From a virus (Duplodnaviria; Caudoviricetes), in the IMG/VR virus record IMGVR_UViG_3300023174_000207, positions 1-55,497 of that record: a stretch of DNA of 55,497 bases; one strand, written 5' to 3'. Under the pieces are notes generated by a model. That model saw nothing but the letters and a program-made list of their open reading frames with translations, did not search any database and was not told the origin of the DNA. Shown here one piece after another: positions 14,435 through 36,382 of this stretch. Positions within the stretch are counted from its first letter, which is position 1. Every line of letters starts with the position of its first letter. The translations under genes were made by a program, and so were the position numbers.

Positions 14435-17237
14435 CAGGTACGCTCTTAGCAGCCTGTATATAAGACTCGGCATCCTCAAAATGGTGGCTGGTCAGGTCAA
14501 AAATGTGCACGTCTACAGGACCTGATGCGACCTTAGTCCCTTTAGATAAGCGCTTCTTGGTATGTCCTAGGTAGGCTTTGTCGGCTTCAAGACCCTTCAA
14601 GATTTCCTTTAAGGTGATCTGTTGCTCGCTGCAATAAGCACGTAGTTGCTTAGCATTGATAAACATCTTCTTGGTGTCAGGCTCAATCCTAATAAACAAG
14701 TCATTAAACTTAGGCTCGACGATGGGTAATTGTTCCATGCCAGACCTAGAATCTACTTCGTTGTTTATAACCAACACTGAAGCACGGTGCTCGTTAATGA
14801 ACTCATTGATGACGCTGCTTTGTGAAGCCGACGGAGCCTTAACTTCATTACGCATGATAGCTACTTCTTTAACAATCCAGTCATAGACCCGCTTAACGTC
14901 AAAGTCAATAATCTTGAGGTCCTTGGCAATCAAAGCCCCAGCAATGTTACAAGCAATTACAGCCGACCAAAACCGCTCCCTGCTGGTCAAACCTACTGCT
15001 TTATCAAGGCGTTGCTGCACCTGCATGACTAGATCAACGGCTTCCTCTAGATCGCTAACAAGGTATTTGGCGTACTCAACACCCGCATGTCCGTAGTTAC
15101 CATACAGTTTGCTAAAGATTGCGTCGGCTTCTTCCTTGGTTAAGTTGCTCGTTAGATCAATTTTGTACTCCAACAGACGCATGAACTCACCATCAGGAGT
15201 CGACTTTAACGAAGATAGTTTGTCGTAGAACGAAGCGTTTGAACTGCACAATGCTATGGTTGCCCACTTAGTATGGTTCACACGCTCAGCGTTATCGTGC
15301 TGTTTCATACGATTCTTGCCCCGTCCCTGTGACAAGCTGTAAGCTAGATCAGAGAACGTATCTCCACTAAGCTTGGTGATCTCGTCTATCGTAGCCGGTA
15401 GGTTATTGAGCACGCCCATGCGATGGATGATGGAGTTGATTGTGTCTTTCCATTGCATCATTAGTTCTTCGGGGTGCCCCCAAACGCTATTGCAAGCCTT
15501 AAGAATCGTAGATTTACCGGTGCCTGAAGTGTTGTTGATGAGATTGATAATTGCACCCTTGAGGTTCAGATGCTTTAAAAGCGGCGATCCAAATGCAGTA
15601 AAAAAGGCAAAAGCATGCGGCTCAAACCCTGGCTGGTTATATATTTGTATAACCTTTTGCCACTCGGCGTAGCTACCTGTTGGTGTTAAAAATTCAGATA
15701 TTGTGCCTGTTGATGCAGACGGTGGGCTGTAGCTAACTTTAGTTGCTGAAATTTCTTGATCCCCAAGAATAAACTTGGAGTTGTCATCGGTCCAACCAAA
15801 CTGATTTCTCATAATTTCTACCTCGGATCTATGTTGAAGTTCTTTTGTAAACGTAATAATGTACGCCATTACTTTTTTCATTTGCTCTGAATTACCTACG
15901 ACGCCGTGCCAACCAAGGCGCTCCCTAAGTTTTTCAGTAGCCATTACATCGACGACTGGCATGGCAAACTCACGCAAACCGTCTTTGGGCAAATGCAATC
16001 TTAACCAAATGCACTCGCCACGTGATGGATCATGTAGCCGCTTAACAATATATAAATCGTGCTCATATATGTTGGCAGCATCTACGTTGCCTTCTTCGTC
16101 TTTGAATTCTATGTAAACGCCACCGTTTTTACCCCTGAAGTATGGGAAAGGGTACGTTGGTATATCAAAGATCTCCTTTTGCCCAGTCTCCGTAACCTCA
16201 GCAATAACATTGGTTTCTGCAGCCGCAATTTCAGATCCGAGTTGAATTGGAGACGATATATTACCCTTATGCTTACAGCCCTCACAACCTTGAGGATTGA
16301 GTTTTTCAAACGTTTGACACGTATACGGCCCCTTCGTTTGATTGGCCTTACGTTCCGTGCTTTCGGGCGAGTACTCAGGGTGTCCCTGTGAAATTTTATG
16401 AATTGCTTCATCTTTGTCTACGCAAGCTGCCGCTACCGACAGCCCTGCTCTCCATAACGGCTCTTCAATTGTGTCTTGATTTACTGCAATATTTTCAAGC
16501 TGAGCACAGCCTTGCCCATTCATGGTCTTAATCATGATGGTTTTGAACCGGCTTTGCTTATTACCTAGTAACGCTTGTGTCATCTCATTGAGTTGACGAG
16601 GCATCCAATCAGGTGCAATTAACACACCAATGTTTTGTTTAATAGCCTCAAACGGCAACTCTTTGGATACAGCAAGTAGTTCTACTGGGAGCGGTGGCTC
16701 CTGTTTAAAATTAAATGTTTCAGGTATCCGCAGTATTGAGGCATTATCTGCGGTGCGTGACGGGTCAGCTTCAAAGCCATGATCTTCACATAGTGCTTTT
16801 AACCGTTCGGCTACAGGCTTCCAATCTTTACGATTAACTACTTCCTGTAATCTCCAATAAGCATGGATACCACGTCCTGAGTTAACAATAGTTGGTAGGG
16901 GTACGTTGATCTTGCCACAAAAGTCTTTAAGAGCAGTAAGCCCTGCAGCTTGATCCTCATACGGTTTACCTACTCCACAATCAACATCAAGCCAAAAAGC
17001 TTTAATAAGATTGCCATTTGGTTGAATGCGTCCCTGCTTGGGGTCTTCATATTTAGCACATGCAAAATAAGCATCATACTTTTCAGCTACCAGCGTGTTC
17101 ACTTCAGCTTCGACATCTGCCAAAGTCTGAAAGAAGTTTTGTCTTGGTCTAGCTGTGTCCTGCCGCAAGCCGACTGTACAATACCAGCCTTCTCCCTCGG
17201 GCGGCAAAACCGCTACCAATAGGTCTCTGATTGCCAT
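14403..17237 (-). CDS. Primase-helicase (AEP/RepB-type primase + DUF927-like + P-loop helicase)
   Basis: N-terminal WLDVD, SGRGIHAYW and ILRIP primase motifs. Cys cluster. Walker A SGTGKST and Walker B TIDE. Confidence 0.85.
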   Translation of the reverse strand: MAIRDLLVAVLPPEGEGWYCTVGLRQDTARPRQNFFQTLADVEAEVNTLVAEKYDAYFACAKYEDPKQGRIQPNGNLIKAFWLDVDCGVGKPYEDQAAGLTALKDFCGKINVPLPTIVNSGRGIHAYWRLQEVVNRKDWKPVAERLKALCEDHGFEADPSRTADNASILRIPETFNFKQEPPLPVELLAVSKELPFEAIKQNIGVLIAPDWMPRQLNEMTQALLGNKQSRFKTIMIKTMNGQGCAQLENIAVNQDTIEEPLWRAGLSVAAACVDKDEAIHKISQGHPEYSPESTERKANQTKGPYTCQTFEKLNPQGCEGCKHKGNISSPIQLGSEIAAAETNVIAEVTETGQKEIFDIPTYPFPYFRGKNGGVYIEFKDEEGNVDAANIYEHDLYIVKRLHDPSRGECIWLRLHLPKDGLREFAMPVVDVMATEKLRERLGWHGVVGNSEQMKKVMAYIITFTKELQHRSEVEIMRNQFGWTDDNSKFILGDQEISATKVSYSPPSASTGTISEFLTPTGSYAEWQKVIQIYNQPGFEPHAFAFFTAFGSPLLKHLNLKGAIINLINNTSGTGKSTILKACNSVWGHPEELMMQWKDTINSIIHRMGVLNNLPATIDEITKLSGDTFSDLAYSLSQGRGKNRMKQHDNAERVNHTKWATIALCSSNASFYDKLSSLKSTPDGEFMRLLEYKIDLTSNLTKEEADAIFSKLYGNYGHAGVEYAKYLVSDLEEAVDLVMQVQQRLDKAVGLTSRERFWSAVIACNIAGALIAKDLKIIDFDVKRVYDWIVKEVAIMRNEVKAPSASQSSVINEFINEHRASVLVINNEVDSRSGMEQLPIVEPKFNDLFIRIEPDTKKMFINAKQLRAYCSEQQITLKEILKGLEADKAYLGHTKKRLSKGTKVASGPVDVHIFDLTSHHFEDAESYIQAAKSVPDVDPRAELQS

Positions 17238-17479
17238 TAGTTATATTTAGTAAGTAGTTTTTCTATTTTCCTAACTTTGTCTTTGTTGGGCATACCAACT
17301 CCGGTAAACCAGTTGTATATAGTCATGCGGGTTACGCCTAACTTTGCAGCAATGGTTGATACCGGAATATCGTTGGTAATACAATACCGCCCAAGCCTGA
17401 CCCCGATGTTTTCAGGATCGGCAGCTTGAGCAGCTTGATTTGCTTTTACAAGACGAAAGCTATACCCTCTAAGACTCAT
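17237..17479 (-). CDS. XRE-type helix-turn-helix protein
   Basis: IAAKLGVTRMTIYNWFTG HTH signature. Confidence 0.75.
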   Translation of the reverse strand: MSLRGYSFRLVKANQAAQAADPENIGVRLGRYCITNDIPVSTIAAKLGVTRMTIYNWFTGVGMPNKDKVRKIEKLLTKYN

Positions 17480-25399: not shown

Positions 25400-25428
25400 A
25401 GTATAATCCTTAATTACATTTTTGCAAA
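25400..25428 (-). promoter_or_regulatory. Possible sigma70-like promoter for the replication operon
   Basis: Minus strand TTGCAA...TATACT, 16-17 bp spacing, AT-rich upstream. Confidence 0.45.
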
Positions 25429-25456
25429 CTATTTTTATTAGGACAAACCCGAAGTA

Positions 25457-25485
25457 GGACATAGTGTCATTGTGACACTTTGTCC
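25457..25485. repeat. 29-bp palindrome, copy 1
   Basis: GGACATAGTGTCA-TTG-TGACACTTTGTCC. Confidence 0.95.
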
Positions 25486-25487
25486 CA

Positions 25488-25514
25488 TAAAAAAAGCCAC
25501 CCGAAGGTGGCTTG
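25488..25514 (-). terminator. Intrinsic terminator ending the early operon
   Basis: AAGCCACC-cgaa-GGTGGCTT (UUCG loop on the minus strand) followed by a U-tract. Confidence 0.8.
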
Positions 25515-25635
25515 GTGTAGGCTAAAGTAGATTCCGCATCCTACTTGCGGTGTCGGGAGATTGTTGGCTTACGCCTTGACTTGCATCACATCTACTAGGC
25601 TAGCAAGAACAACCATCGGAAATACAATGCTTATT

Positions 25636-26541
25636 CTATTCTTTAAGGTAGAAGTAGGTGTTAGGATACTTCTCCGCCATATACTGCTCAGGCTTGAACA
25701 TAACCCCAAACTGACACATCTCGGCAGATTGAAGAAGTTTGAACACACCTAACTTTGTTTGAAAGTCTGTCGGCATATCGGTAAAACTTTTATACCTAGC
25801 AAGGGTTTTGGTAGCATAACTGTAAATAATGTATGCTCCATCAGGACGCAATAACACACCATAACCTTTGTCATTTTTAATACCATTAACTATTTGTTCG
25901 CTCTCGTAGTAATTAGAACAAGCAGTTAAGTATTTCTTTTGGTCTTTGACTGTGGCTGGTATTACAGGTAATGATATTGTGCTTTCACCTTTAAGCCTAG
26001 CAAGATACCCAAGCAGAGCATAGTTCATGCCTTCACCATCATCGTCAAACGACCAACTAACTTCATGGCGATATTCTCCGTGCAAACTATCAGTCCTATC
26101 ACGGATTGTTTTTGCTATCTCGCCAATTAGTTCTTGGTCTGCTCTACCAATAAATAACTTTTTAATCTTGCGTAGAGCAACTTTAATGTTGCTAGTTACG
26201 GTGGTGTTTTCGTCGCCACGCATTTTACTAATACGAAAGCTACTTACTTCGAATACATCTACCCTGCCACCATTCATGCAACGCTTTCCAACAAACAAAG
26301 AACCAAGTTCCTCACCATTTTCAAAGACTTTGACACCCCTGAATATTGTCTTTTGCTCGTATTTGTCGTCGACTGGTGTATGAATTGTTTCTGTGTAACT
26401 GTGATGGGCATGAGCCACAAAGTTAACTAACGGTTTTGCTAGTTGCACCTGTGCTAGGAAGTCCATCAACTTAGGATTTACTTCCACTTCGTTGTATTTA
26501 GTCGGCAGTTTAGACCTGTCGATTTTAATTATGCTTGTCAT
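25636..26541 (-). CDS. Hypothetical early protein
   Basis: 301-aa ORF with AAGGA RBS. Confidence 0.75.
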   Translation of the reverse strand: MTSIIKIDRSKLPTKYNEVEVNPKLMDFLAQVQLAKPLVNFVAHAHHSYTETIHTPVDDKYEQKTIFRGVKVFENGEELGSLFVGKRCMNGGRVDVFEVSSFRISKMRGDENTTVTSNIKVALRKIKKLFIGRADQELIGEIAKTIRDRTDSLHGEYRHEVSWSFDDDGEGMNYALLGYLARLKGESTISLPVIPATVKDQKKYLTACSNYYESEQIVNGIKNDKGYGVLLRPDGAYIIYSYATKTLARYKSFTDMPTDFQTKLGVFKLLQSAEMCQFGVMFKPEQYMAEKYPNTYFYLKE

Positions 26542-26549
26542 ACATTTCC

Positions 26550-27446
26550 TTAAAAGTTAAATTTAGCTAGGATTGAGTCAACCTTTTGCTTAACTGCTTC
26601 ACGAGCAGTGAACGACTCCCGCAAGTCCGATACATCGTAGCCTTTAATACTTGCTTCAAGCTCGGCACGAGCCAACTCTAGTTTGGGGTCTTGCGTGATG
26701 TTCAAGTGTTTCAACATATTAATAAGCTCGGTAGCGTTATCCATTAGTGAGTCACGGAATATGCGTGGCTTCAGCACAGTCCCATTAGTAAGAGGGTCAT
26801 CGCTTGCAACCTCGTCATACTGAAGTCTGTCACTCATGCGGGTAAGGCAGTCATGCAGTCTAGCCCAAGCGTCACGCATTGCGTTGTTGAGACGCTCTTG
26901 GTATGCTGTGTCACAGTTTGCTAGTATTTCCGCCTTAGCGTCTTCATTTATGTCGATACGGAAATCACCCGCCGTCGGCACAGGGAAGAAGTTATACGAG
27001 AATTTGAATCTGTTCTTCAGCGTATGGACTTCGGGATACTCTGTTCTGTCGAACAAATCACCCAACTGAAAAGCCGCAGCAATAACTAGGTTCGGGTAGG
27101 AGTCAATGAATCTGTCGACTAAAGCCATGTAGTTGGTTTCTAGCACACCCAACTGTTCCTTGTATGCCATGAAGTTAGACATAGGCAGTAAGCGTGAGCC
27201 GTTGTCCGACCAAGGTAGAGTCTGTGCCAAGTGCCATGTTCTAGCACCCGATGCGTATTTGAGGATTGACTCCAACACACCTGTGCCTGCCATAAGGTTC
27301 TTGTTCACATTGACTGTGGATACCTTGGTGTTCTTCGCACTATCTACCTCGGCGGATACCTTCTTGTCCAACTTGCGTGCAGTCCAACTGCTGATACTTA
27401 GTTCGACTAGCACGGCTGATGATGCAATACTTATTGAGTTATTCAT
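26550..27446 (-). CDS. DUF3150-like helical protein linked to the MoxR/vWA module
   Basis: LVELSISSWTARKLD, TLPWSDNG and EYPEV...F motifs. Family assignment is from recollection and needs an HMM check. Confidence 0.55.
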   Translation of the reverse strand: MNNSISIASSAVLVELSISSWTARKLDKKVSAEVDSAKNTKVSTVNVNKNLMAGTGVLESILKYASGARTWHLAQTLPWSDNGSRLLPMSNFMAYKEQLGVLETNYMALVDRFIDSYPNLVIAAAFQLGDLFDRTEYPEVHTLKNRFKFSYNFFPVPTAGDFRIDINEDAKAEILANCDTAYQERLNNAMRDAWARLHDCLTRMSDRLQYDEVASDDPLTNGTVLKPRIFRDSLMDNATELINMLKHLNITQDPKLELARAELEASIKGYDVSDLRESFTAREAVKQKVDSILAKFNF

Positions 27447-27466
27447 TTGTATTCCTTTAGGTTATA

Positions 27467-27495
27467 GGACTTAGTGTCACTCTGACACTTTGTCC
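27467..27495. repeat. 29-bp palindrome, copy 2
   Basis: GGACTTAGTGTCA-CTC-TGACACTTTGTCC. Contains the stop codon of 27477..27686. Confidence 0.95.
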
Positions 27496-27686
27496 CTTTG
27501 TTTATAAAAATCACTGCTTTGGTAAAACTTAACAAGGTGCTGTATTGCTTGAGAATAGGATAAGTTGAACCCTAGGGTTTTACCCATCTCATCTTTTACT
27601 TCTGCGAGCATTGTCACAGTCTCAGGATTAAGACTGATGTTTACTTTGCCATCGCTGGCACGACCTTTCGGTATTTTTGTAGTCAT
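27477..27686 (-). CDS. Ribbon-helix-helix-like DNA-binding protein
   Basis: VNISLNPETVTMLAEVK...SYSQAIQHLV strand-helix-helix pattern. AAGGAG RBS. Confidence 0.55.
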   Translation of the reverse strand: MTTKIPKGRASDGKVNISLNPETVTMLAEVKDEMGKTLGFNLSYSQAIQHLVKFYQSSDFYKQRDKVSE

Positions 27687-27695
27687 GATTTCTCC

Positions 27696-28898
27696 TTATT
27701 CAACATGAACGACTTTACCTACTACTGATTCATTAAAATGATTGTTGCCTTTGATGCACCACAATACAGGTGCTTCGATAGACCAATCGCTTGGGTTTTG
27801 TGATGGAATGTAGCCGTCGGTCAAAATGATTAAGCACTCAGGTTTGATGTCATGCTTTTTCATAAACTTGGGCAAACACGCAGGTTCAGTCCCACCGCCA
27901 CCCGCAGGCTTAGTGGTTTCAACTAGACCCGCAAGTTCATTGTCACGATAGGTTTCCCTTGACGCAACATGGGTGTCCCAATACAGCAGGTCAATCTGTT
28001 CAGGATTTACCTCGTCGCAGATAGACTTCACCTCTGACAAGAACTGACTAAGTTCTTCCCCACCGATAGAGCCTGATGTGTCCACACCGATAGCGATACC
28101 GCCTACCTTTTCAGAATAAGACGATGGCATGATTAAGTCGGCGGCGATATACCGCTTGTGCAATCGTTTCCATGTAGTCTTGTCTTTGCCGTGCATGGCA
28201 GTCTTGACAAAATCACGCAATGCTTCTCGCCAATTTACTTTAGGCACAAGCAAGTCACCCATCTCACGAGATACATTACCGCCCATCTTGCCCACTAGCA
28301 TAGAGCCTTGTCGTAGTGCTGACTCGATTTCCTTGGCAACTTCTTCCTTGTCCTGCTCAGACATATCTTGGGCTTCGTCCCAATCGTGTCCGTCAAGGGA
28401 TTCTTTACCACCACCGCCACCACCACGACCACCTTGTTGTTCTTCCTCAAGGATTTTGAATACTTGCCCTGAGTCCATACCACGAAAGCGTTCATCAATA
28501 AGACCTAGCACATTGCCTTGTGCGTCGGTTGGGAAATCAGTCATATCATTCTCAGGGTCATAGTCCCTGATTTGCAGATTGATAACATAGTCGCAAGCCA
28601 TGTTAGCCAAACGACTGTTCTTCTTATTCAACGGTTGCCACACTACGAGGTGACGATAAGCCTTGTGCATATTCTCATGCAAGATAAGGAAGGCTAGTTG
28701 CTTGTCGTTCAAACTGTCGACAAACTTTCGGTCATACACCACATCAACACCATTGGTTTGAGCCGTGCCACTAGAAGTCTTGTCTCGGACTTCGACCTTG
28801 CCAATCATGAACAAACCTGCAAACAAACAAAAGTTTGGGTGTTTCATAAGTTGCACATGGATTCGTTCAATCCGTTGCTCTGCGGTTAGTTGAGCCAT
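27696..28898 (-). CDS. DUF2201-type metallopeptidase fused to vWA domain
   Basis: HENMH zincin motif, NMACDYVIN, MIDAS VDTSGS, GGGGT and ILTDG. Confidence 0.88.
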   Translation of the reverse strand: MAQLTAEQRIERIHVQLMKHPNFCLFAGLFMIGKVEVRDKTSSGTAQTNGVDVVYDRKFVDSLNDKQLAFLILHENMHKAYRHLVVWQPLNKKNSRLANMACDYVINLQIRDYDPENDMTDFPTDAQGNVLGLIDERFRGMDSGQVFKILEEEQQGGRGGGGGGKESLDGHDWDEAQDMSEQDKEEVAKEIESALRQGSMLVGKMGGNVSREMGDLLVPKVNWREALRDFVKTAMHGKDKTTWKRLHKRYIAADLIMPSSYSEKVGGIAIGVDTSGSIGGEELSQFLSEVKSICDEVNPEQIDLLYWDTHVASRETYRDNELAGLVETTKPAGGGGTEPACLPKFMKKHDIKPECLIILTDGYIPSQNPSDWSIEAPVLWCIKGNNHFNESVVGKVVHVE

Positions 28899-29161
28899 TG
28901 CATTTTCTCCTCGTTAGGTTTAACTTCTACATCTACTTCTTCGCCTTCTCTATCTACATAGTCGCTTACTGCGTTAGCAAATAGTCGAATAGCCTCATGC
29001 GGTGGCACATTGGCATGCCCTAGCATGGTGTTAATAAGCATGGTAAATAACACAGACATGACCATACCTAATTCCATTTCTTCTTTCTCAAAGTAAGAGC
29101 CAAGTGTTTCGGCTATGCTTTCCAACTGCTCTTGCCTTGCTACTACTTCTTCGTCGTTCAT
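28886..29161 (-). CDS. Acidic hypothetical protein
   Basis: 91 aa, Glu-rich, AAAGGA RBS. Sits between the AAA+ and vWA genes. Confidence 0.6.
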   Translation of the reverse strand: MNDEEVVARQEQLESIAETLGSYFEKEEMELGMVMSVLFTMLINTMLGHANVPPHEAIRLFANAVSDYVDREGEEVDVEVKPNEEKMQWLN

Positions 29162-29182
29162 AGTTTTCCTTTAGTTAGGTTG

Positions 29183-29211
29183 GGACAAAGTGTCACGATG
29201 ACACTCTGTCT
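29183..29211. repeat. 29-bp palindrome, copy 3
   Basis: GGACAAAGTGTCA-CGA-TGACACTCTGTCT. Confidence 0.95.
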
Positions 29212-29212
29212 T

Positions 29213-30307
29213 TTAGAACAAGTATTGATTCTCACGCATCCAATCGCAGAACGACTGGCTTGTTAAGAACATCTTCTTCTTGTCGTCGTTCTTCATACCT
29301 GTCAAGCAGAACACAGACTGCAACTCTTTCGGAGTCCGCTTGAGATACTCAAAGAACTTATTGATTGTTTCTCTATCGACACGCTGAACTGCCGAGAACG
29401 CTAGTAAACAAAGGGCGGCGGGACTTGTGGGAACTTGAGCCGTTTTGGGGTTCTTGATAATCTCTTCCCATGATGGCAACGAATCCGCAACATCAACAAA
29501 AGACATCAACTCACGAGCAGAATACGCACCGATAGTGCCTTCCAATGCACAAGTAATTGCATTAGTGGTTGAAGAGCCACGAACCTTAAGAATATTTGAT
29601 GCTCTCTCAAGGGAACGAGGGCTAACGAAAGCCTTCTGTGCTTCTTTTGGTTGAAAGATATGCTTGTTGCCTGCCTGTGATGGGTCTAGGTATGACGCTA
29701 GAACTTGAGGATTGTTCTTAACCCATGCTAGAACTTCAGCAACAATATCGTTCTTGACTGCCCACTCACCCCATGAGTTCGGTTCGATAGAGCCATCGGG
29801 GTTAAAGCCTGCTGATGGTTTCTTGATATGAACGACACTCACACGATTGCGTGTATGGGAACGCATTACATCATTGACACCGTCGGTGCTGTAATTACCA
29901 GCAGTAACGACTATCGTTTGCTTGTGCAATGGGATACCCATAACTTGCCGTGGTTCGTTAAGCATAGGGTGCAACATATTCTGCACACCCAATGGTGCTT
30001 TGGTTATCTCGTCAATGAACACGACGAGTGGTTCGTCCAAATGAAAACCCCACATCTCGTTAGGATAAATGCGAGTAGTCTTGGTGCTATGGTCGGGGAT
30101 TGGCACACCCAACTCGCCCAACTCAATGTTCGGTCCGTCGATATAAACACCACGATACCCTGTGCGTGCAACAATGTTCTTGAACATCGAGGTCTTGCCC
30201 ACACCCATCTCACCCATCAGGTGAATAGTTCCGTTCCCACCCAACGCAACAATCATATCTTCTGCTTCTTTGAGCGTTGCGGATTTACTTAGTAATACTT
30301 CAGCCAT
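29213..30307 (-). CDS. MoxR-like AAA+ ATPase
   Basis: Walker A GEMGVGKT, Walker B VVFIDE, TAGN, SPRS sensor motif. Adjacent to a vWA gene. Confidence 0.88.
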   Translation of the reverse strand: MAEVLLSKSATLKEAEDMIVALGGNGTIHLMGEMGVGKTSMFKNIVARTGYRGVYIDGPNIELGELGVPIPDHSTKTTRIYPNEMWGFHLDEPLVVFIDEITKAPLGVQNMLHPMLNEPRQVMGIPLHKQTIVVTAGNYSTDGVNDVMRSHTRNRVSVVHIKKPSAGFNPDGSIEPNSWGEWAVKNDIVAEVLAWVKNNPQVLASYLDPSQAGNKHIFQPKEAQKAFVSPRSLERASNILKVRGSSTTNAITCALEGTIGAYSARELMSFVDVADSLPSWEEIIKNPKTAQVPTSPAALCLLAFSAVQRVDRETINKFFEYLKRTPKELQSVFCLTGMKNDDKKKMFLTSQSFCDWMRENQYLF

Positions 30308-30338
30308 TTTTGATTTCCTTAAGGTTATATTTAATTAA

Positions 30339-30367
30339 AGACATTGTGTCATCGTGACACTTTGTCC
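30339..30367. repeat. 29-bp palindrome, copy 4
   Basis: AGACATTGTGTCA-TCG-TGACACTTTGTCC. Confidence 0.93.
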
Positions 30368-31329
30368 TACTTTGCATACATATACTTGTCATTTCCGTCA
30401 TGAAACGGAGTGCCAATTACTACTTCTTCTTCTTTGAATAGCGTGTCCCTGAAGTGATACTTCAAGATTTCTTCAAAGTATTTCTTAAACGCTTGTGGCG
30501 AACAAGAAACAAAATTGTCCCGATACGAATACTTACCCGCATTGTGAGCAATTAGATACATCAGGTTGTAAGCCAACTCCAAATCCCCAGATTCGTTAAA
30601 CTTATCCAATGCTTGAATAACAACTGCTCGATTGGACCTGTCGTTAGGTTTTCTGTTCCAATGGTAAGCAGGTAGCAAATCATCATCTTGGAGTTTGAAA
30701 TACTCCTTGACTTTGGTTATCTCCCTTTTCTCACCATCGTATACATTTGAATCTAGCCTACTGTCCATGCTCAAAGCGGTGCAAGCGTAGTCGATAAACT
30801 TCTTGTATCGCTTACGCAAGGCATTCATCTCTTTACGATTAAGCCTATACACAGTCTCAGGTGTTACATCTTTGGGCATGAAGTCCCCATCGACAGAACG
30901 AAAAACTGTTTTGCCCATGTCGCTAAGAACAAAACTTTGGTTCTGTTTGTTGATGAGATACCACTTGCCACGCATTGACCCAATCTTAGCGACACCGAAC
31001 AAAGCATAGGTAAGCATATTCATTACTGAAACACCACGATACCTTCGACAATCAAACACTACATCGCCATTTGGGTAGAAGGTAAGGTAGTCGTAGTCAT
31101 ACATCTGACAAACATAAACATCAACGAACTCACCCAATGGGTTATCAGGTGTTTCAATGCTTGCCCGCTTATGCACAATCTCCATCCACTTGTGCCGTCG
31201 GTTATCGCCAAGTGGTCGTAGGTTGTCGCTACCCCTGATTGGGGTAGTCTTTTCGTAGCGTTCCTTTGCTTGAGCATAGTTTGCTATCGGCTTAATACGG
31301 GCGGAGTTATACCCCGAATGAATACGCAT
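30367..31329 (-). CDS. Hypothetical early protein
   Basis: 320-aa ORF with TAATG coupling. Confidence 0.75.
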   Translation of the reverse strand: MRIHSGYNSARIKPIANYAQAKERYEKTTPIRGSDNLRPLGDNRRHKWMEIVHKRASIETPDNPLGEFVDVYVCQMYDYDYLTFYPNGDVVFDCRRYRGVSVMNMLTYALFGVAKIGSMRGKWYLINKQNQSFVLSDMGKTVFRSVDGDFMPKDVTPETVYRLNRKEMNALRKRYKKFIDYACTALSMDSRLDSNVYDGEKREITKVKEYFKLQDDDLLPAYHWNRKPNDRSNRAVVIQALDKFNESGDLELAYNLMYLIAHNAGKYSYRDNFVSCSPQAFKKYFEEILKYHFRDTLFKEEEVVIGTPFHDGNDKYMYAK

Positions 31330-32159
31330 TACTTACCTGCCTTTCCCTCGTAGTATTCAACGATGATGGTCAAGCGTTTGATTTCCTTACGCAAAGACTC
31401 AATCTGTGCCAAGGATTCGTCATACGCAACATTACGCACCTCTCGTCTTGTCTTTGCGTCTACCTCACGCTGAAGTCTGCGAGCCTCAGTCTGCCACTCA
31501 GTCACCCGATTTTCCAAGAACAAAATGTAATTCTCTCTGTCTTGGTCAATAGGCATTGGCTTTAACTGCTCTGCAATTTCCAATGACCTTGGCATAGCAA
31601 ACGATGTTACTTTTTCTGTCGGCTTGAACTCGAATGGGTTCTTCTTGACTTTTGGTTTTTGCAAGCAACCTTTAGCCAAGGCTTCGTCGTATGGGTAATA
31701 CTTCATATACCCTGTGCTGACTGACTTTTTCTTGCCAATCAAACCACGAGATACAAGACTGCCCAACTTCATGTTGAGAACTTTGAGTGCAACATCTTTA
31801 CCGACATAGGTGTGGATAGTTGTAGCGGTTCTGCAACCTGTCTTCAAAGCACTAAGCACCCGCTCTTCCAAACTTTTTACATGCTTGGGGTATGCTCTAG
31901 CACCGCTTGATACATTGCTACCTTTGCGGATTTTCCACATGGCTGTGTGAATCGTGTTCAACCTTTTGCCTGTCGTTTGGGAAATGTCCAAGGCTTTGTT
32001 AATGCCGTTGTCCATGCACCACTTCGTTGCTTCCATGACTGACAGAGTGCTGAAGTCGGGTAGCCGTGGGGCATTTACATCTACTTCAGGCTTTTGGTTA
32101 TCCATGCTAGCCATCTGTGCTTTTACTTCTGCTAATACTGCGTTTACTTCAGGGTTCAT
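31329..32159 (-). CDS. Hypothetical early protein (possible HTH/wHTH + coiled coil)
   Basis: 276 aa, AAGGAG RBS, basic centre, C-terminal heptad repeats. Confidence 0.65.
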   Translation of the reverse strand: MNPEVNAVLAEVKAQMASMDNQKPEVDVNAPRLPDFSTLSVMEATKWCMDNGINKALDISQTTGKRLNTIHTAMWKIRKGSNVSSGARAYPKHVKSLEERVLSALKTGCRTATTIHTYVGKDVALKVLNMKLGSLVSRGLIGKKKSVSTGYMKYYPYDEALAKGCLQKPKVKKNPFEFKPTEKVTSFAMPRSLEIAEQLKPMPIDQDRENYILFLENRVTEWQTEARRLQREVDAKTRREVRNVAYDESLAQIESLRKEIKRLTIIVEYYEGKAGK

Positions 32160-32180
32160 AACATACTCCTTTTAGTTAAG

Positions 32181-32209
32181 GGACTTAGTGTCACAATGAC
32201 ACTTTGTCT
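32181..32209. repeat. 29-bp palindrome, copy 5
   Basis: GGACTTAGTGTCA-CAA-TGACACTTTGTCT. Confidence 0.95.
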
Positions 32210-32475
32210 TACTTCGTTAGCCATATAAAAAGAAAAATAGGCAGGGCTATGGCACACCCACCCATGAAAAGGGTCATAAAAAACTCAGAGAAGAACTCAA
32301 GCGTATGGCGTAGGTCTGACTTGTGTCTTTCTATTGCACACGCATAGGTTGCATCTTTGAACGCTTCAGATACGCTACGGCTAGTCCTGCCTGCCACATG
32401 ATGTGGGTCGGCAGTTCCCCGATAGGTTCGCATATCTACACCTTCAACAAACATCTTTGCTTTCTTTGGTTTCAT
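32209..32475 (-). CDS. Small protein with C-terminal transmembrane segment
   Basis: AAGGAG RBS and a hydrophobic C-terminus. Confidence 0.6.
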   Translation of the reverse strand: MKPKKAKMFVEGVDMRTYRGTADPHHVAGRTSRSVSEAFKDATYACAIERHKSDLRHTLEFFSEFFMTLFMGGCAIALPIFLFIWLTK

Positions 32476-32644
32476 TCTTTAACTCCTTCAAGTCGTTAGT
32501 CATAACATCAAGCCTGTGTATTACATTGAAAATAATCAAATTGGCATGGTTTCTAGTAACACCACGCATACGAGTCATAGCCAATGCCTTAACCATTGCT
32601 TTAGCATTGGATATCATTTCGTCCAGTTTCTCCTCGTCGGTCAT
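32444..32644 (-). CDS. Hypothetical protein
   Basis: GGGAG RBS and ATGA overlap. Confidence 0.55.
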   Translation of the reverse strand: MTDEEKLDEMISNAKAMVKALAMTRMRGVTRNHANLIIFNVIHRLDVMTNDLKELKNETKESKDVC

Positions 32645-32829
32645 TTTTCTCCCTGTAATGAGGTTAGTTTGGCTTTCATAATTGCGAGTTCGGCTTCTCC
32701 TTGCACATATTGAGCAAGGTCTTCGGCAGTCCTGATACTGTCTTTGTTTAACTCAAGAACAACTTGGAACTCCCTGATTTGGCTCAACAACTCGCTAATG
32801 CGTTGCCCTTTGTAGTATTCCGTCATCAT
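32641..32829 (-). CDS. Hypothetical protein
   Basis: ATG at 32829 overlaps the previous stop codon. Confidence 0.55.
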   Translation of the reverse strand: MMTEYYKGQRISELLSQIREFQVVLELNKDSIRTAEDLAQYVQGEAELAIMKAKLTSLQGEK

Positions 32830-33095
32830 GCCCTCACATAAAAGGAACACGCAATACTGTTGGGTATCGACTCGAATACCTCTTTACTTACTTCGATTTG
32901 CTCACCCGCAGTAACGGCAACTTCGCCACCGAAAAAGTAATAGGTGTCATAGTCTATCTTATCGGGTTTACCCCACCAATCTTTAACTATGTGGTTATGC
33001 ACCTCACTTGGGTCTTGGTCGGTAGCAAAGCGGATAGAGGTGGTTGCCTCGTATTCCCCGATGGTCATGTTTACTGTTGCTAAGTAGTATTTCAT
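32826..33095 (-). CDS. Hypothetical protein
   Basis: GGAGG RBS and ATGA overlap. Confidence 0.6.
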   Translation of the reverse strand: MKYYLATVNMTIGEYEATTSIRFATDQDPSEVHNHIVKDWWGKPDKIDYDTYYFFGGEVAVTAGEQIEVSKEVFESIPNSIACSFYVRA

Positions 33096-33226
33096 TCGCC
33101 CTCCAACATTGCTTTAGCCTCGGCTAGATACCCAAACCCTTCTTCGACAAGTAGCAAATCTTCTTCCTCTATGCCCTTGTGGATTAGCGTGTAGGCTACA
33201 TGTAGTTTGGCAATTATTTCGTGCAT
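33092..33226 (-). CDS. Small acidic hypothetical protein
   Basis: AAGGAG RBS before ATG at 33226 (MHEIIAKL...). Confidence 0.55.
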   Translation of the reverse strand: MHEIIAKLHVAYTLIHKGIEEEDLLLVEEGFGYLAEAKAMLEGE

Positions 33227-33244
33227 TTCTTTCTCCTTAGGTTG

Positions 33245-33273
33245 GGACTTAGTGTCACTCTGACACTTTGTCG
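33245..33273. repeat. 29-bp palindrome, copy 6
   Basis: GGACTTAGTGTCA-CTC-TGACACTTTGTCG. Contains the stop codon of 33255..33506. Confidence 0.95.
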
Positions 33274-33506
33274 TTGGTTGTAAAGCGGTGGGAAAAGCCC
33301 TCAAGAAATCCTGCTTGAAAGGCTTCTTTAATTTCTGAGTAAATTACTCGGCTATGCGGTGCTACCTTATTTGCATACCCATGTCCCTTCTCGATAGCGA
33401 TATCTTCAATAGTGAATTCAGTCCTGAATTCTTCGGTAGCCCACTCAGGTGGGTCGGTATCACAATCAAAGTCATCTTCAAATCTTGGTTCTCTTGGTTC
33501 GCTCAT
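33255..33506 (-). CDS. Acidic hypothetical protein
   Basis: GAGGA RBS before ATG at 33506. Ends DKVSE inside the palindrome. Confidence 0.55.
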   Translation of the reverse strand: MSEPREPRFEDDFDCDTDPPEWATEEFRTEFTIEDIAIEKGHGYANKVAPHSRVIYSEIKEAFQAGFLEGFSHRFTTNDKVSE

Positions 33507-33742
33507 ATCGTCCTCTTGGGGTTTAGTTGCTTGAGCATCGCTAGGTCTGTGATACAAACATAGTTTGATTTGTTCAAAGGTGCAATAGTGAAATGCCGTT
33601 GCTTGGCAATCTCTTCCCCGCAGTCATGGCAAGTCATACGCAAACCATGCGTCTTGAGGTGCTCGGCTCGGTCTTCATCTACCTGTTTGCCGTAGCAGTT
33701 GGTGCATAGATAGCGGTGTGATTGGTGCGTCGCTTTGGTCAT
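33503..33742 (-). CDS. Small zinc-finger protein
   Basis: CTNC...CHDC and a GGGAG RBS. Confidence 0.65.
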   Translation of the reverse strand: MTKATHQSHRYLCTNCYGKQVDEDRAEHLKTHGLRMTCHDCGEEIAKQRHFTIAPLNKSNYVCITDLAMLKQLNPKRTI

Positions 33743-33760
33743 CGTATCTCCCTGTTTGTG

Positions 33761-33789
33761 GGACATAGTGTCAATGTGCCACTTTGTCC
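33761..33789. repeat. 29-bp palindrome, copy 7
   Basis: GGACATAGTGTCA-ATG-TGCCACTTTGTCC. Confidence 0.93.
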
Positions 33790-33834
33790 TGTTAGTAAAA
33801 AATAAGCAAAAAATGGGCGAATTCCCACTCTATT

Positions 33835-33875
33835 AGTATACCACACCTAGTGGGAAAAGTCAAGGATATGTCCTA
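33835..33875 (-). promoter_or_regulatory. Strong sigma70-like early promoter A
   Basis: TTGACT-17 bp-TATACT with extended -10 TG. Shares 26 bp with 34757-34782. Confidence 0.8.
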
Positions 33876-34018
33876 CTTTGAAGTCCGCCGTTTGCACACG
33901 GCGAGCAGGTATGTTGAGTGGCGGTCTTGCTAAATTTTATTGCGTCGCTTAGTCTTTTTTAGGGGGTTGGTGTGTCGCTAGGGGGGAACTGGTGGTTTTT
34001 GCAAAGCAAAAACAAAAT

Positions 34019-34047
34019 GGACAAAGTGTCAATTTGACACTTTGTCC
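34019..34047. repeat. 29-bp palindrome, copy 8 (perfect arms)
   Basis: GGACAAAGTGTCA-ATT-TGACACTTTGTCC. Confidence 0.95.
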
Positions 34048-34057
34048 CAAGGCACTA

Positions 34058-34645
34058 CTAAGCGATATTATGCTCAAGCACCATGTAGTTCAATACTTCC
34101 ATGTCCAAGGTATCAACCCAATCTTTGACCCGCTTACGCAATGCGACCAATTCGGACTTTGCGTCCTTGCCTAGTTCCTTTTGGCGGTGGGCAAGTTCCT
34201 TGCTGATTTTCTTAGCGGACTCTAACTTAGCAAGAGTGGGTTGAGCCAATAGACTTGCCATCTCCGCTTGTAATTGGTCATCGGACTTCTCAGCAAAAAC
34301 CGCCCTTGCCTTTGCCCTTTGTTCTGCTTTACGCTTTGCCTCAGGGTCATCAGATTCAGGGATAGTGATAGCGGACTCATGGCAAACCCGTTTCCACTTG
34401 GACTTGATAGCGTCCTCGGTCTTACCCGCATTTTGCAAGGTTTCCCAAAACAAAACACGACCCATTGAATACCTAGCCCATGAAGGCTTTGTGCCTAACA
34501 CCTCTGCGATTGTTGCAATAGCCTCGGCGATAGCGTCCTCGCCTTCGTCAAGAGCAAGGGTTGCGGATACTAACTGAGCATTTTCATGCTCGTCAAATTG
34601 CGATAACATCTCGGCGGTTTTTACTACTGTGGTTGAGTTTTTCAT
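34058..34645 (-). CDS. Early helical protein, paralog of 35564..36226
   Basis: GGAG RBS before ATG at 34645. Motifs IKSKWKR, KAEQRAKA and LQAEMASL. Confidence 0.75.
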   Translation of the reverse strand: MKNSTTVVKTAEMLSQFDEHENAQLVSATLALDEGEDAIAEAIATIAEVLGTKPSWARYSMGRVLFWETLQNAGKTEDAIKSKWKRVCHESAITIPESDDPEAKRKAEQRAKARAVFAEKSDDQLQAEMASLLAQPTLAKLESAKKISKELAHRQKELGKDAKSELVALRKRVKDWVDTLDMEVLNYMVLEHNIA

Positions 34646-34675
34646 AACAATCTCCATGGAGTGGGTTTAGGTATG

Positions 34676-34704
34676 GGACATAGTGTCACTCCGCCACTTT
34701 GTCC
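34676..34704. repeat. 29-bp palindrome, copy 9
   Basis: GGACATAGTGTCA-CTC-CGCCACTTTGTCC. Confidence 0.9.
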
Positions 34705-34741
34705 CGCATGGGGTGGAAACCATTTCCGACCTCACAAATAC

Positions 34742-34782
34742 AGTTTAACACAGGTGGTGGGAAAAGTCAAGGATATGTCCTA
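34742..34782 (-). promoter_or_regulatory. Strong sigma70-like early promoter B
   Basis: TTGACT-17 bp-TAAACT with extended -10 TG and an AT-rich upstream region. Confidence 0.75.
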
Positions 34783-34789
34783 TTTATTT

Positions 34790-35095
34790 TTGTAATGTTC
34801 TGAAAATAGGGGGTAATGTTCTACAATGTTCTGTTGGGTTGGAACAATAGAAAACCTTATGGGTATTGGGTTTGCGGTTAGTTTAGATATAATGTTCTAT
34901 TGTTCTATATAGATTAATATAAGAACGGCGGGGGTTTTTAGCACTATGCGTAGGGGGTCTTCGTCCCCTGCCAAAATAATTTTCCAAGGTTATTTTTTTT
35001 GGAACATTTGGAACATTTGGAACATTGCGTGTAAGTCCTTGATTACAAAGCGTTTCTATTGTTCCATGCAACGGAACATTACAAGAACAATATCA
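34790..35095. repeat. Cluster of ~12 AWTGTTC/GAACAWT heptamers; candidate replication origin
   Basis: AATGTTC at 34794, 34815, 34825 and 34891. ATTGTTC at 34899 and 35058. GGAACATT x3 at 35001-35026 and again at 35073. GAACAAT at 34842 and 35085. Non-coding with an AT-rich core. Confidence 0.6.
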
Positions 35096-35164
35096 GGGTT
35101 TCCCCTAGTTTACAAAGTGGGCAAAATCAATTATGCTCTGGTTCAGAGCATAACAAAAACAAGG

Positions 35165-35193
35165 GGACAAAGTGTCACGCTGACACAATGTCC
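35165..35193. repeat. 29-bp palindrome, copy 10
   Basis: GGACAAAGTGTCA-CGC-TGACACAATGTCC. Confidence 0.93.
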
Positions 35194-35239
35194 TGCGTGG
35201 CTTGTGCGTCGCTTACAACCAGTTCCCTAATTTTTTGCG

Positions 35240-35263
35240 AAAAAAACCCAGCCGAAGCTGGGT
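35240..35263 (-). terminator. Intrinsic terminator
   Basis: ACCCAGC-cgaa-GCTGGGT (UUCG loop on the minus strand) plus a U-tract. Confidence 0.8.
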
Positions 35264-35285
35264 CAAATTACTGCCATTGGACTAA

Positions 35286-35563: not shown

Positions 35564-36226
35564 TTAGATTTCAGAATCTTCCGGCTGGTATTGCTCGAGG
35601 ATAGCTAAAGAATCCTGAAGCATATCTTCATCAAAGCAATTTTTAGCTGCCTTGATTACCTCAGCCTGAAGATCTTTAATCCCAGCCATGCGTTCTTTTA
35701 AAGCGTCCTGATTTTTAGCTTTAATTGCTTTAGCTAATTTTCCGGCTTTAGCTAAATTTTCCGGAGTAGCTTTAGCCGTGAGCATAGCTATCTCAGCTTG
35801 TAAATCAGCGATTGGCTTAGCCTTTAATTCGTCCATAGCCAACTGGGCTTTCGTCCGCTGCTCAGCCTTTTTTTGGCTTCCGATCTCAGGACTAGCTGGT
35901 TTAGTTAAAGCATAATTCTCTTCCAGCCGACGGGTAAACCGCTTCCACATAGACTTGATACTGTCCAGCTCGAATAGCTCAGCATGGCTATTAGCCGTTA
36001 AGCCTTTTTTCTTGGCATAAGCTAATTTCATTACTTCAGACCCAGCTACCCATAAATGGTAATCAGCTTGTTTAATAATTTTGCCGTCCACTTCGATTGC
36101 AATTTCAACTGCACGGGCAAAATCTTCCACAGCCTGATCTGCATCTACTTCACTAACAGCAAACAAATCACCAACATCACTAAACAACTGCACTTGCGTA
36201 TCACTTAATTGGAATTGAATATCCAT
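35564..36226 (-). CDS. Early helical protein, paralog of 34058..34645
   Basis: Motifs IKSMWKR, KAEQRTKA and LQAEIAML. First gene of the leftward arm. Confidence 0.75.
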   Translation of the reverse strand: MDIQFQLSDTQVQLFSDVGDLFAVSEVDADQAVEDFARAVEIAIEVDGKIIKQADYHLWVAGSEVMKLAYAKKKGLTANSHAELFELDSIKSMWKRFTRRLEENYALTKPASPEIGSQKKAEQRTKAQLAMDELKAKPIADLQAEIAMLTAKATPENLAKAGKLAKAIKAKNQDALKERMAGIKDLQAEVIKAAKNCFDEDMLQDSLAILEQYQPEDSEI

Positions 36227-36282
36227 TTTCCGTTATCCCTTTTTAGGTTAAACACCGGTGAACCATTCACCAGCTAAGATAT

Positions 36283-36343: not shown

Positions 36344-36382
36344 GGCTAGTGCGCCGCCTTACTTGGCTAGTGCGCCGCCTTA
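36344..36382. repeat. Tandem 18-bp direct repeat (period 21)
   Basis: GGCTAGTGCGCCGCCTTA at 36344 and 36365. Confidence 0.85.

Follow-up and report, generated by a model that had tools for sequence, protein, structure and literature searches.

Lineage-specific, putatively operator-like palindromes in the early region of an uncultivated freshwater phage

The early region and its palindromes

The early genes of an uncultivated freshwater phage (IMG/VR virus record IMGVR_UViG_3300023174_000207) are punctuated by ten copies of a 29-bp palindrome. The window analysed here is the whole record of 55,497 bp, estimated to be 88% complete. All ten copies lie within 25457-35193, between minus-strand early genes or in their leaders. 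The features of the region are as follows, the palindromes being given without strand and all coordinates being those of the window.

25457-25485: copy 1 (1 mismatch), 8 nt behind the strong terminator-like hairpin 25494-25513 and upstream of the replication-operon promoter
27467-27495: copy 2, whose 3' arm holds the stop codon of the 69-aa gene, ending 20 nt before the start of the 298-aa gene
29183-29211: copy 3, directly after the AAA ATPase gene and 21 nt before the next start codon
30339-30367: copy 4, directly upstream of the AAA ATPase gene, at a position that is syntenic in all relatives and holds there the class-specific spelling
32181-32209: copy 5, 21 nt before the 276-aa gene
33245-33273: copy 6, which holds the stop codon of the 100-aa ORF
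33761-33789: copy 7, in the leader of the long early operon, starting 46 nt after the -10 of promoter 33835-33863
34019-34047: copy 8, a perfect palindrome followed by a T-run, which probably doubles as the terminator of the 195-aa gene
34676-34704: copy 9, in the leader of the 195-aa gene, starting 38 nt after the -10 of promoter 34742-34770
35165-35193: copy 10, behind the terminator-like hairpin 35245-35264 and before the iteron-like cluster, with its asymmetry inverted relative to the other copies
34776-34780, minus strand: outer pentamer GGACA, 5 nt upstream of the -35 of the promoter of the 195-aa gene
33869-33873, minus strand: outer pentamer GGACA, 5 nt upstream of the -35 of the long early operon promoter
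34742-34770, minus strand: sigma-70-type promoter TTGACT-17-TAAACT
33835-33863, minus strand: sigma-70-type promoter TTGACT-17-TATACT
34058-34645, minus strand: 195-aa early protein, predicted all-helical, of no known family, its gene bracketed by copies 9 and 8; the candidate class-specific reader
35564-36226, minus strand: 220-aa paralog of the candidate reader and first early gene, with its own leader hairpin
25494-25513, minus strand: intrinsic terminator-like hairpin plus T-run that ends the long early operon
35245-35264, minus strand: intrinsic terminator-like hairpin plus T-run that ends the first early unit

The palindromes were first noticed in a sequence-only reading, and that observation is confirmed. 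A search allowing 0-3 mismatches returned exactly 10 matches, whereas 100 dinucleotide-preserving shuffles gave a mean and a maximum of 0, and relaxing the search to 6 mismatches added no copy anywhere in the window. The 3-bp core varies, as had been claimed. Seven copies (27467, 29183, 30339, 32181, 33245, 33761, and 34676) end 18-31 nt before the next minus-strand start codon, and stop codons overlap or abut the copies at 27467, 33245, 30339, 32181, and 29183. The earlier reading held that most copies are not inside a -35/-10 promoter; in fact none of the ten lies inside such a pair, and only 2 of 10 follow a strong promoter. Additionally, the consensus read in the direction of transcription is not a perfect palindrome, since position 6 and its partner are A opposite A in 34 of 63 distinct 29-mers. 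Only this position is asymmetric, and the asymmetry is inverted in some copies.

Variation of the palindromes among related phages

The palindrome is conserved in relatives. Five related records hold 5-10 copies each, at syntenic gene junctions and, in the three near-complete records, within about 10 kb. In 70 copies (68 distinct) from the window and relatives, thirteen arm positions are invariant around the free 3-bp core, and the variable positions change on one side only, with a single exception. There was 1 cell with a change on both sides against 11.9 +/- 2.5 in shuffles, 500 of 500 shuffles being higher. For instance, pair 11-19 is T-A 44 times, broken 24 times, and never G-C. The claim that arm mismatches are not compensatory, which favours a site on double-stranded DNA over an RNA stem, is therefore upheld. 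Moreover, the fold energies of the two strands are equal (-12.6 and -12.6 kcal/mol).

Other relatives carry differently spelled palindromes at the same places, much like interchangeable lock-and-key sets. Of 21 loci found with the ATPase (71-79% identity), thirteen have no copy of this palindrome and carry instead seven other spellings at the same syntenic places, giving eight classes. The classes are discordant with the backbone, as class I needs 3-4 changes on the trees of the ATPase, the 298-aa protein, and the 400-aa protein. The class I locus L007 is sister to the class V locus L061 with starred support on two trees; their ATPase is 92% and their 298-aa protein 90% identical, and nucleotide homology stops and restarts at three of the shared junctions. 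In 24 of 26 strong early promoters, the pentamer 5 nt upstream of the -35 is exactly an outer arm pentamer of that genome's own class, with a mean identity of 4.65 of 5 to the own class against 2.70 of 5 to the others. This element is not palindromic and lies upstream of the transcription start of its promoter. The change of the promoter pentamer with the palindrome spelling implies a phage-encoded, sequence-specific reader. Furthermore, the copies at 25457 and 35165 lie behind strong terminator-like hairpins, yet they are among the best matches (1 and 2 mismatches). The copy behind the last terminator exists in 7 of 8 classes, while the class IV locus ends before that place.

A host regulon was also looked for. 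A scan of one genome for each of 185,579 species gave 13 single hits in unrelated genomes and no multi-copy genome.

Among the early proteins, the 195-aa protein is the best candidate for the reader. Its homologues were found in every class with enough upstream DNA. Identity is 39-79% within class I, about 30% between classes I and VIII, which share the outer module, and 37% between IV and V, whose half-sites agree in 10 of 12 positions, whereas all other class pairs are 14-25%; the identity of the protein tracks the palindrome class. However, this is a correlation only, and it could partly reflect linkage because the protein lies beside three of the copies. In a wider set anchored on the terminase, only 12 of 32 loci with at least 3 kb of upstream DNA gave any phmmer hit to this family, which is therefore either hypervariable or not universal. 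No DNA-binding domain could be recognised in the protein, as Pfam, PHROGs, PDB sequence, and fold searches were all uninformative. The paralog pair, to which it belongs, was one of the binders proposed by the sequence-only reading. The others do not fit. The HTH protein at 17237-17479 has the same recognition helix in five palindrome classes; the RHH-like protein at 27477-27686 is missing from its slot in four of eight classes, and its strand residues are invariant across four classes; the protein at 31329-32159 does not co-vary with the class.

A proposed early regulator and the alternatives

The best explanation, held with moderate confidence, is that the ten palindromes are binding sites on double-stranded DNA for a phage-encoded, lineage-specific early regulator. 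In this view, each 13-bp arm has an outer module (GGACA) and an inner module (GTGTCA), separated by an A/T-rich triplet that varies among copies and is probably not contacted, and a dimer would occupy the two arms. Host RNA polymerase would start the early units. The reader, most likely the 195-aa protein, whose own gene has a copy in its leader and probably another as its terminator, would accumulate and occupy the leader copies together with the promoter-proximal module, shutting off early transcription. The copies at six further gene junctions would stop polymerases already under way, and the two copies beside terminators would insulate the neighbouring units. The overall logic would be that of an operator plus stoperator-like roadblocks. 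The analysis itself demonstrates the sites, their non-compensatory variation, their replacement by other spellings at the same places in relatives, and the co-varying promoter pentamer and protein; that this protein binds, that it does so as a dimer, and that the effect is repression are inferences from sequence. A DNA site of a phage-encoded reader is considered likely, the identification with the 195-aa family is tentative at somewhat below even, and repression or roadblock is an even call. The two early promoters are near consensus, and no result here decides between repression and activation. Thus, the interpretation offered by the sequence-only reading is partly supported: a protein-binding site on DNA, operator-like but mostly outside promoters, is favoured, whereas two of its other proposals, most of its candidate binders and the shuffleable cassette array, are not supported.

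An RNA-level element is an unlikely but possible alternative. The copies would act as stem-loops in the early polycistronic mRNAs, read by a class-specific RNA-binding protein or nuclease to process, stabilise or translationally control the downstream gene, as with the RNase III sites between T7 early genes or a coat-protein or RegA-type operator. Some features fit this role. The seven copies near start codons end just upstream of the ribosome-binding site, and hairpins of -8 to -19 kcal/mol would form. Copies followed by a T-run are more stable (-16.3 against -12.1, n = 8 and 62), and the copy at 34019 looks like a terminator. Mismatches that would be G.U in the mRNA outnumber those that would be G.U in the antisense strand by 62 to 35, although the copies are not independent. 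In class II, the distance between the two arms is 6 or 7 nt within one genome, which is easier for a hairpin loop than for a rigid dimer. However, the near absence of two-sided changes, the equal fold energies, the free loop beside a fixed stem sequence, the well-conserved copies behind strong terminator-like hairpins, and the recurrence of the outer pentamer without a partner arm upstream of the -35 all speak against it. Moreover, no Rfam family matches, and a true RNA-type hairpin in the same genomes, the leader of the 220-aa gene, does show compensatory changes and a conserved loop.

An equally unlikely alternative keeps the same sites and reader but reverses the effect. The reader would load onto RNA polymerase at the promoter-proximal module, or activate the promoters, and the downstream palindromes would keep or reload it, in a Q-like or RfaH-like processivity logic allowing read-through of the terminators into the replication operon. 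The outer module does sit next to the -35, at -45 to -41 counted from a start assumed 7 nt after the -10, where activators often sit, and copies lie immediately behind two terminators. However, both promoters are near consensus with a 17-bp spacer and should not need activation, the loading sites of this kind so far described are single per operon, and no homologue of a known antiterminator was found among the 40 proteins scanned.

Sites for a host regulator or nucleoid protein, or loading and anchoring sites for DNA entry, are considered very unlikely, although the evidence against them bears on a host factor and not on the entry idea. The copies are confined to the region next to the packaging genes, which by inference may enter first, but closely related backbones carry eight different spellings, which a shared host factor would not explain, and the species scan found no genome with more than one copy. 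Recombination sites for a shuffleable cassette array are the least likely: although the slot between the 400-aa and 298-aa genes, next to one copy, is empty, holds the RHH-like gene, or holds other ORFs in different relatives, and some homology breakpoints lie within 45 nt of a copy, gene order is identical in all relatives compared, most breakpoints with the nearest relatives are away from copies (with the two nearest, roughly half of the internal homology ends lie more than 180 nt from any copy), the one contig joint between two copies was a mis-placed divergent allele with only 22-30 nt on one side, no recombinase was found among the 40 proteins scanned, and shuffling does not explain the promoter pentamer.

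A more far-reaching possibility, regarded as doubtful, is that a lytic, abundant freshwater phage lineage carries an immunity-like system. A fast-evolving regulator with a DNA-binding fold not yet described would read about ten dispersed palindromes plus promoter modules, and at least eight mutually exclusive protein-site specificities would sit on otherwise freely recombining backbones. The sites would persist as islands of divergence because mixed sets are mis-regulated, and cross-repression between co-infecting relatives would drive the diversification.

Relation to known systems

Multi-copy regulator sites outside promoters are known in detail almost only from mycobacteriophages. Here the same logic, as inferred, appears in an uncultivated freshwater phage group that is large, with at least 599 terminase-related stretches in IMG/VR. 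The sites are palindromic, a promoter module co-varies with them, and the candidate reader has no known fold. The eight or more spellings on near-identical backbones form a natural set of possibly orthogonal protein-DNA pairs, which would be useful as genetic parts. The pattern also poses the question of how about ten dispersed sites, two promoter modules, and one protein change together while the genes between them stay 80-90% identical.

In parS/ParB or KorB-type systems, a ParB-family protein is encoded together with multi-copy 13-16-bp palindromes; no ParB family appeared among the 10 early proteins scanned with Pfam and the 30 proteins scanned with PHROGs, which do not cover all ORFs. The RNase III sites of T7 are likewise stem-loops between the genes of host-transcribed early operons, but here the stem is not maintained by compensatory changes, the sequence rather than the structure is conserved, and copies also lie outside transcribed units. 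The PeSL motifs of T4-like phages are repeated stem-loop-containing motifs that punctuate early gene arrays (PMC4122927; PMC2839356). However, they are composites of promoter and terminator that bound indels, whereas here 8 of 10 copies have no promoter, gene order is conserved, and indels are not bounded by two copies.

The Cro/CI-type operators of lambdoid phages are palindromic sites read by a dimer, with an autoregulated regulator gene and repressor-operator pairs that are interchangeable between otherwise similar genomes. The present sites share the two half-sites with a free centre. However, those operators overlap the promoters and number about six, whereas here none of the ten overlaps a -35/-10, only a lone outer pentamer lies next to the -35, and most copies lie between genes. 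The 22-bp intergenic repeat of the T1-like phages T1 and Stevie is also multi-copy, occurs in a lytic phage, and was compared by its authors with stoperators, its role being unknown (PMC4319613). That repeat is asymmetric and spread over the genome, and no co-varying promoter element or reader is mentioned in the description consulted.

The stoperators of cluster A mycobacteriophages (L5-type repressor sites) are among the closest known systems. As in the present case, many dispersed copies of one site lie in short intergenic spaces of transcribed regions beyond the promoter operator, and site motif and repressor, here the palindrome class and the candidate reader, differ between phage lineages and correlate with each other (PMC6550527). 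The mycobacteriophage repressor stops elongation (PMC9283540), whereas binding and roadblock are only inferred here. Stoperators are 13-bp asymmetric sites lying in one orientation relative to transcription and read by a monomer with an HTH and a second domain, in temperate phages, with 20-35 copies over the whole genome. The present phage has no lysogeny gene among the 40 proteins scanned, its candidate reader has no HTH recognisable by sequence or fold search, and its sites are 29-bp near-palindromes, about 10 in number and found only in the early region.

The palindromes and their setting in the early region

The sequence-only reading had listed ten copies of the palindrome, and this observation held, as a pattern search of the window (a complete IMG/VR virus record, estimated to be 88% complete) found exactly these ten with 0-3 mismatches. 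No match appeared in 100 shuffles, and allowing up to six mismatches added no further copy in the 55,497 bp. Moreover, no second multi-copy palindrome was found in the window, although an orphan 10-nt half arm (CACTTTGTCC), for which about 0.1 is expected by chance, lies without a partner arm at 45246-45255 inside the major head gene. All genes from 14403 to 36226 are on the minus strand. Based on PHROGs and Pfam, the minus strand encodes a primase/helicase, a helicase, an exonuclease and a DNA polymerase, the early region an AAA ATPase and a DUF2201 protein, and the plus strand the terminase, the portal and the head genes, whereas no integrase or recombinase was found among the 40 proteins scanned. 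A megablast search of the phage collection found no near relative, and the nearest isolates by DNA polymerase are Rhizobium and Pseudomonas (KPP25-like) phages at 34% identity. The main features of the early region are as follows.

34770-34742, minus strand: near-consensus sigma-70 promoter TTGACT-17-TAAACT, followed by a palindrome in its leader
33863-33835, minus strand: near-consensus sigma-70 promoter TTGACT-17-TATACT, followed by a palindrome in its leader
34019: perfect palindrome copy followed by a T-run, at which the 195-aa gene ends
25513-25494, minus strand: strong terminator that ends the long operon
25457: palindrome copy directly following that terminator
35264-35245, minus strand: another strong terminator
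35165: palindrome copy behind that terminator

The first promoter drives the single 195-aa gene (34058-34645), whereas the second drives a long operon in which copies separate blocks of overlapping or abutting genes. Seven copies end 18-31 nt before a start codon, and five touch the preceding stop codon. The operon encodes, at 26550-30307, the AAA ATPase (364 aa), a DUF2201 metallopeptidase/VWA-like protein (400 aa) and a weak DUF3150-like protein (298 aa), which are the best conserved early genes of the family. Outside the early region, a 2937-aa protein at 5342-14155 sits in the structural module, and its C-terminal 1000 residues match DarB-like and helicase families, so that it may be an injected anti-restriction or enzyme protein.

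The palindromes are accompanied by other repeated elements. About 14 copies of GAACA[AT]T on both strands cluster at 34794-35091, between the first early terminator and the promoter of the 195-aa gene. The same heptamer is among the most repeated words in relatives of several palindrome classes, and it looks like iterons of an origin or sites of a second, conserved binder. A 9-mer, AGCGACGCA, occurs three times (33726, 33941 and 35205 on the minus strand) against about 0.4 expected, and an inverted pair GGGAACTGG / CCAGTTCCC (33984 and 35219) flanks the unit of the 195-aa gene; both recur near early promoters in relatives. Furthermore, two direct 17-nt repeats lie at 36344-36381 upstream of the first early gene. 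As close relatives have two repeats at the same place but with different sequence, this may be a second specificity-variable element. By contrast, an element of the form TAGGG-N5-7-CCCTATAAA (in the window, cgggtttgtcctaataaaaa) lies at 25429-25456, directly after the last palindrome and upstream of the replication-operon promoter 25400-25428, and is conserved across all palindrome classes.

Palindrome classes and the promoter pentamer

An exact-pattern scan of IMG/VR found 17 loci from 11 contigs. Five of these records hold 5-10 copies each at up to three mismatches, within about 10 kb in the three near-complete ones, and the copies lie at the same gene junctions, for instance on both sides of the 364-aa ATPase gene. 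From 13 sources, 75 copies were collected, of which 70 are distinct with their flanks and 63 are distinct as 29-mers. Thirteen arm positions never vary, and the 3-bp core is free. For the 13-pair stem, one cell with a change on both sides was counted against 11.9 +/- 2.5 in shuffles, and all 500 shuffles score at least as high on every measure. Pair 11-19 is broken in 24 of 68 distinct rows and is never compensated, while the two strands fold equally well, with a mean of -12.6 kcal/mol each. Pairing as such is therefore not what is conserved.

A search with the ATPase returned 21 loci at 71-96% identity. Thirteen of them have no copy of this palindrome, even at six mismatches, but carry a different palindrome of the same format at the same places. 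Eight classes, I to VIII, are distinguished, with 5-20 copies listed per class in the loci examined. All have the same layout, namely an outer module of 4-5 bp, an A/T-rich and poorly symmetric triplet, an inner module of 5-6 bp, and a free centre. Two more spellings with a 1-nt centre occur in more distant terminase relatives, AAATACTGTC-n-GACAGTATTT with four copies and GATTTTCATAC-n-GTATGAAAATC with two copies (loci L124, 656-3917, and L157, 4069-5623), and the phenomenon therefore extends beyond the eight classes. The related contigs number 599 or more.

Class does not follow the backbone. On the trees of the ATPase, the 298-aa protein and the 400-aa protein, class I needs 3-4 changes. For example, locus L007 (class I) is sister to locus L061 (class V) with starred support on two trees, and between these two the ATPase is 92% and the 298-aa protein 90% identical. 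Nucleotide homology of 79-87% stops and restarts at the edges of the palindromes at three of the shared junctions. Two histories could produce this pattern: either the sites may have been replaced in place, or the genes between them may flow between classes by homologous recombination while the sites stay behind as islands of divergence.

In the relatives and the window, strong early promoters of the form TTGAC[AT]-17-TAnAnT carry a pentamer 5 nt upstream of the -35. In 24 of 26 promoters this pentamer is exactly an outer arm pentamer of that genome's own class, for example GGACA in classes I, III and VIII, CCACC in II, TCACA in V, TAACA in VI and TTACT in VII. Mean identity is 4.65 of 5 to the own class against 2.70 of 5 to classes with another consensus; the two misses are position 3892 of locus L057 and position 4710 of locus L058. 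In several classes the match runs on for 6-8 nt, and in the window the only two minus-strand promoters of this form both carry it. The element has no partner arm, so it cannot be a hairpin, and it lies upstream of the transcription start of its promoter. Additionally, the copies behind terminators are well conserved in 7 of 8 classes, the class IV locus ending before that place. The reader is thus taken to be a DNA-binding factor.

Candidate readers and alternative readings

Several proteins were considered as the reader. The 80-aa HTH protein (17237-17479) is 57-65% identical in classes II, III, VII and VIII, as in class I, and its recognition helix is the same in all of them, so it is rejected. 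The 69-aa RHH-like protein (27477-27686) exists only in classes I, IV, V and VI, and its strand residues N16 and S18 are invariant across these four classes. Its junction between the 400-aa and 298-aa genes (27477-27700) is an insertion hot spot, which in different relatives is empty, holds the RHH-like gene, or holds one to three unrelated small ORFs; in classes II, III, VII and VIII the gene is absent from this slot. Although it does differ between L007 and L061, it is rejected as the general reader. Neither the protein at 31329-32159 nor the zinc-ribbon protein at 33503-33766 tracks the class.

A genome-wide table against eight records shows two proteins that are well kept within class I and poorly kept or absent elsewhere, the 195-aa protein and the 69-aa protein, whereas the 220-aa paralog, a 63-aa ORF and a 79-aa ORF show this pattern more weakly. 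An iterative search finds the 195-aa family in every class with enough upstream DNA. Its identity matrix follows the similarity of the sites: identity is 39-79% within class I, about 30% between I and VIII, which share the outer module, 37% between IV and V, whose half-sites agree in 10 of 12 positions, and 14-25% in all other pairs. L007 and L061 share no detectable similarity in this protein, whereas L007 and L023 (both class I) are 66% identical. Moreover, its gene is bracketed by two copies, one of them in its own leader. However, in an incomplete co-variation test anchored on the terminase, only 12 of 32 loci with at least 3 kb of upstream DNA gave a phmmer hit to the family, and only 4 had one in the second position.

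The AlphaFold model of the 195-aa protein is confident (pLDDT 87.6) and all-helical, with a 42-residue C-terminal helix, but no fold or family search gave a meaningful match. Foldseek against the PDB gave nothing at E <= 0.001, and a wide structural search (VIA) gave a best Z of 7.0 on long helices, which is within the noise for helical models. A profile search of the PDB gave a best E of 0.077, and Pfam on 22 members gave nothing above cut-off. A protein atlas returned only hypothetical viral clusters, of which the nearest named one is DUF3102 at 0.87, a lead only. The assignment rests on co-variation alone.

Some features speak for an RNA role. The copies lie next to ribosome-binding sites and would fold in the mRNA, and those with T-runs are the most stable. 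Mismatches that would be G.U in the mRNA outnumber those that would be G.U in the antisense strand by 62 to 35, although this is a naive count because the copies are related. In class II, the distance between the two arms is 6 or 7 nt within one genome, conserved by position. A by-function of some copies as terminator or mRNA hairpin is likely, but as the main function it does not explain the promoter pentamer, the copies behind terminators, or the lack of compensation. Furthermore, no Rfam family matched at the copies. A useful contrast is the 8+3+8 hairpin at 36255-36273 in the leader of the 220-aa gene, which keeps its UGG loop while its stem changes with compensation among relatives; this is the opposite pattern to the ten palindromes, and it is probably a true RNA element. 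Contigs of public runs, in which RNA ends cannot be seen, include RNA-library contigs that cover parts of the early genes, which does not prove transcription. Their habitat labels (lake and freshwater) rest on 13 runs that hold at least half of the sampled words.

A host factor is argued against both by the class switching and by a scan of one genome for each of 185,579 prokaryote species, which found only 13 single hits, in unrelated genomes. The cassette idea is not supported, as gene order is conserved in all relatives, several homology breaks with the two nearest relatives lie hundreds of bases from any copy, and the only contig joint between two copies (32208 to 35199, with only 22-30 nt on one side) is not a deletion but an alignment artefact of a divergent allele of copy 35165 that resembles copy 32181 more closely, though the insertion hot spot next to one copy means that an occasional recombinational role cannot be excluded.

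The finding is real and far from chance, and it is best read as the operator set of a lineage-specific early regulator, with a co-varying promoter module. While the sites, their classes, the promoter pentamer and the co-variation of the 195-aa protein were observed, the binding of any protein, the identity and fold of the reader, the sign of regulation and the way in which the whole set changes specificity together are matters of inference. The interpretation in the sequence-only reading was therefore partly supported, since its preference for a protein-binding site on double-stranded DNA agrees with these results, whereas its HTH and RHH-like candidates and its cassette alternative do not.

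Comparison with known systems

Repeated intergenic elements of several kinds are already known in phages. T1-like phages have an unexplained multi-copy asymmetric repeat (PMC4319613), and PeSLs (PMC4122927; PMC2839356) differ from the present sites in composition and in their link to indels. A lytic-phage repressor with repeat sites is known in D29 (PMC12266134). The L5 stoperators as originally described, the phiC31 inverted repeats, the P1 C1 operators, the T7 RNase III sites, lambda N/nut and KorB belong to the same background. A full-text search for either 13-base arm found no paper. The closest in logic are the stoperators of cluster A mycobacteriophages. The present sites fail the defining asymmetry of stoperators, and their reader is only inferred. 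Stoperators are many intergenic sites read by the immunity repressor, which also stops elongation, with motif and repressor diverging together (PMC9283540; PMC6550527).
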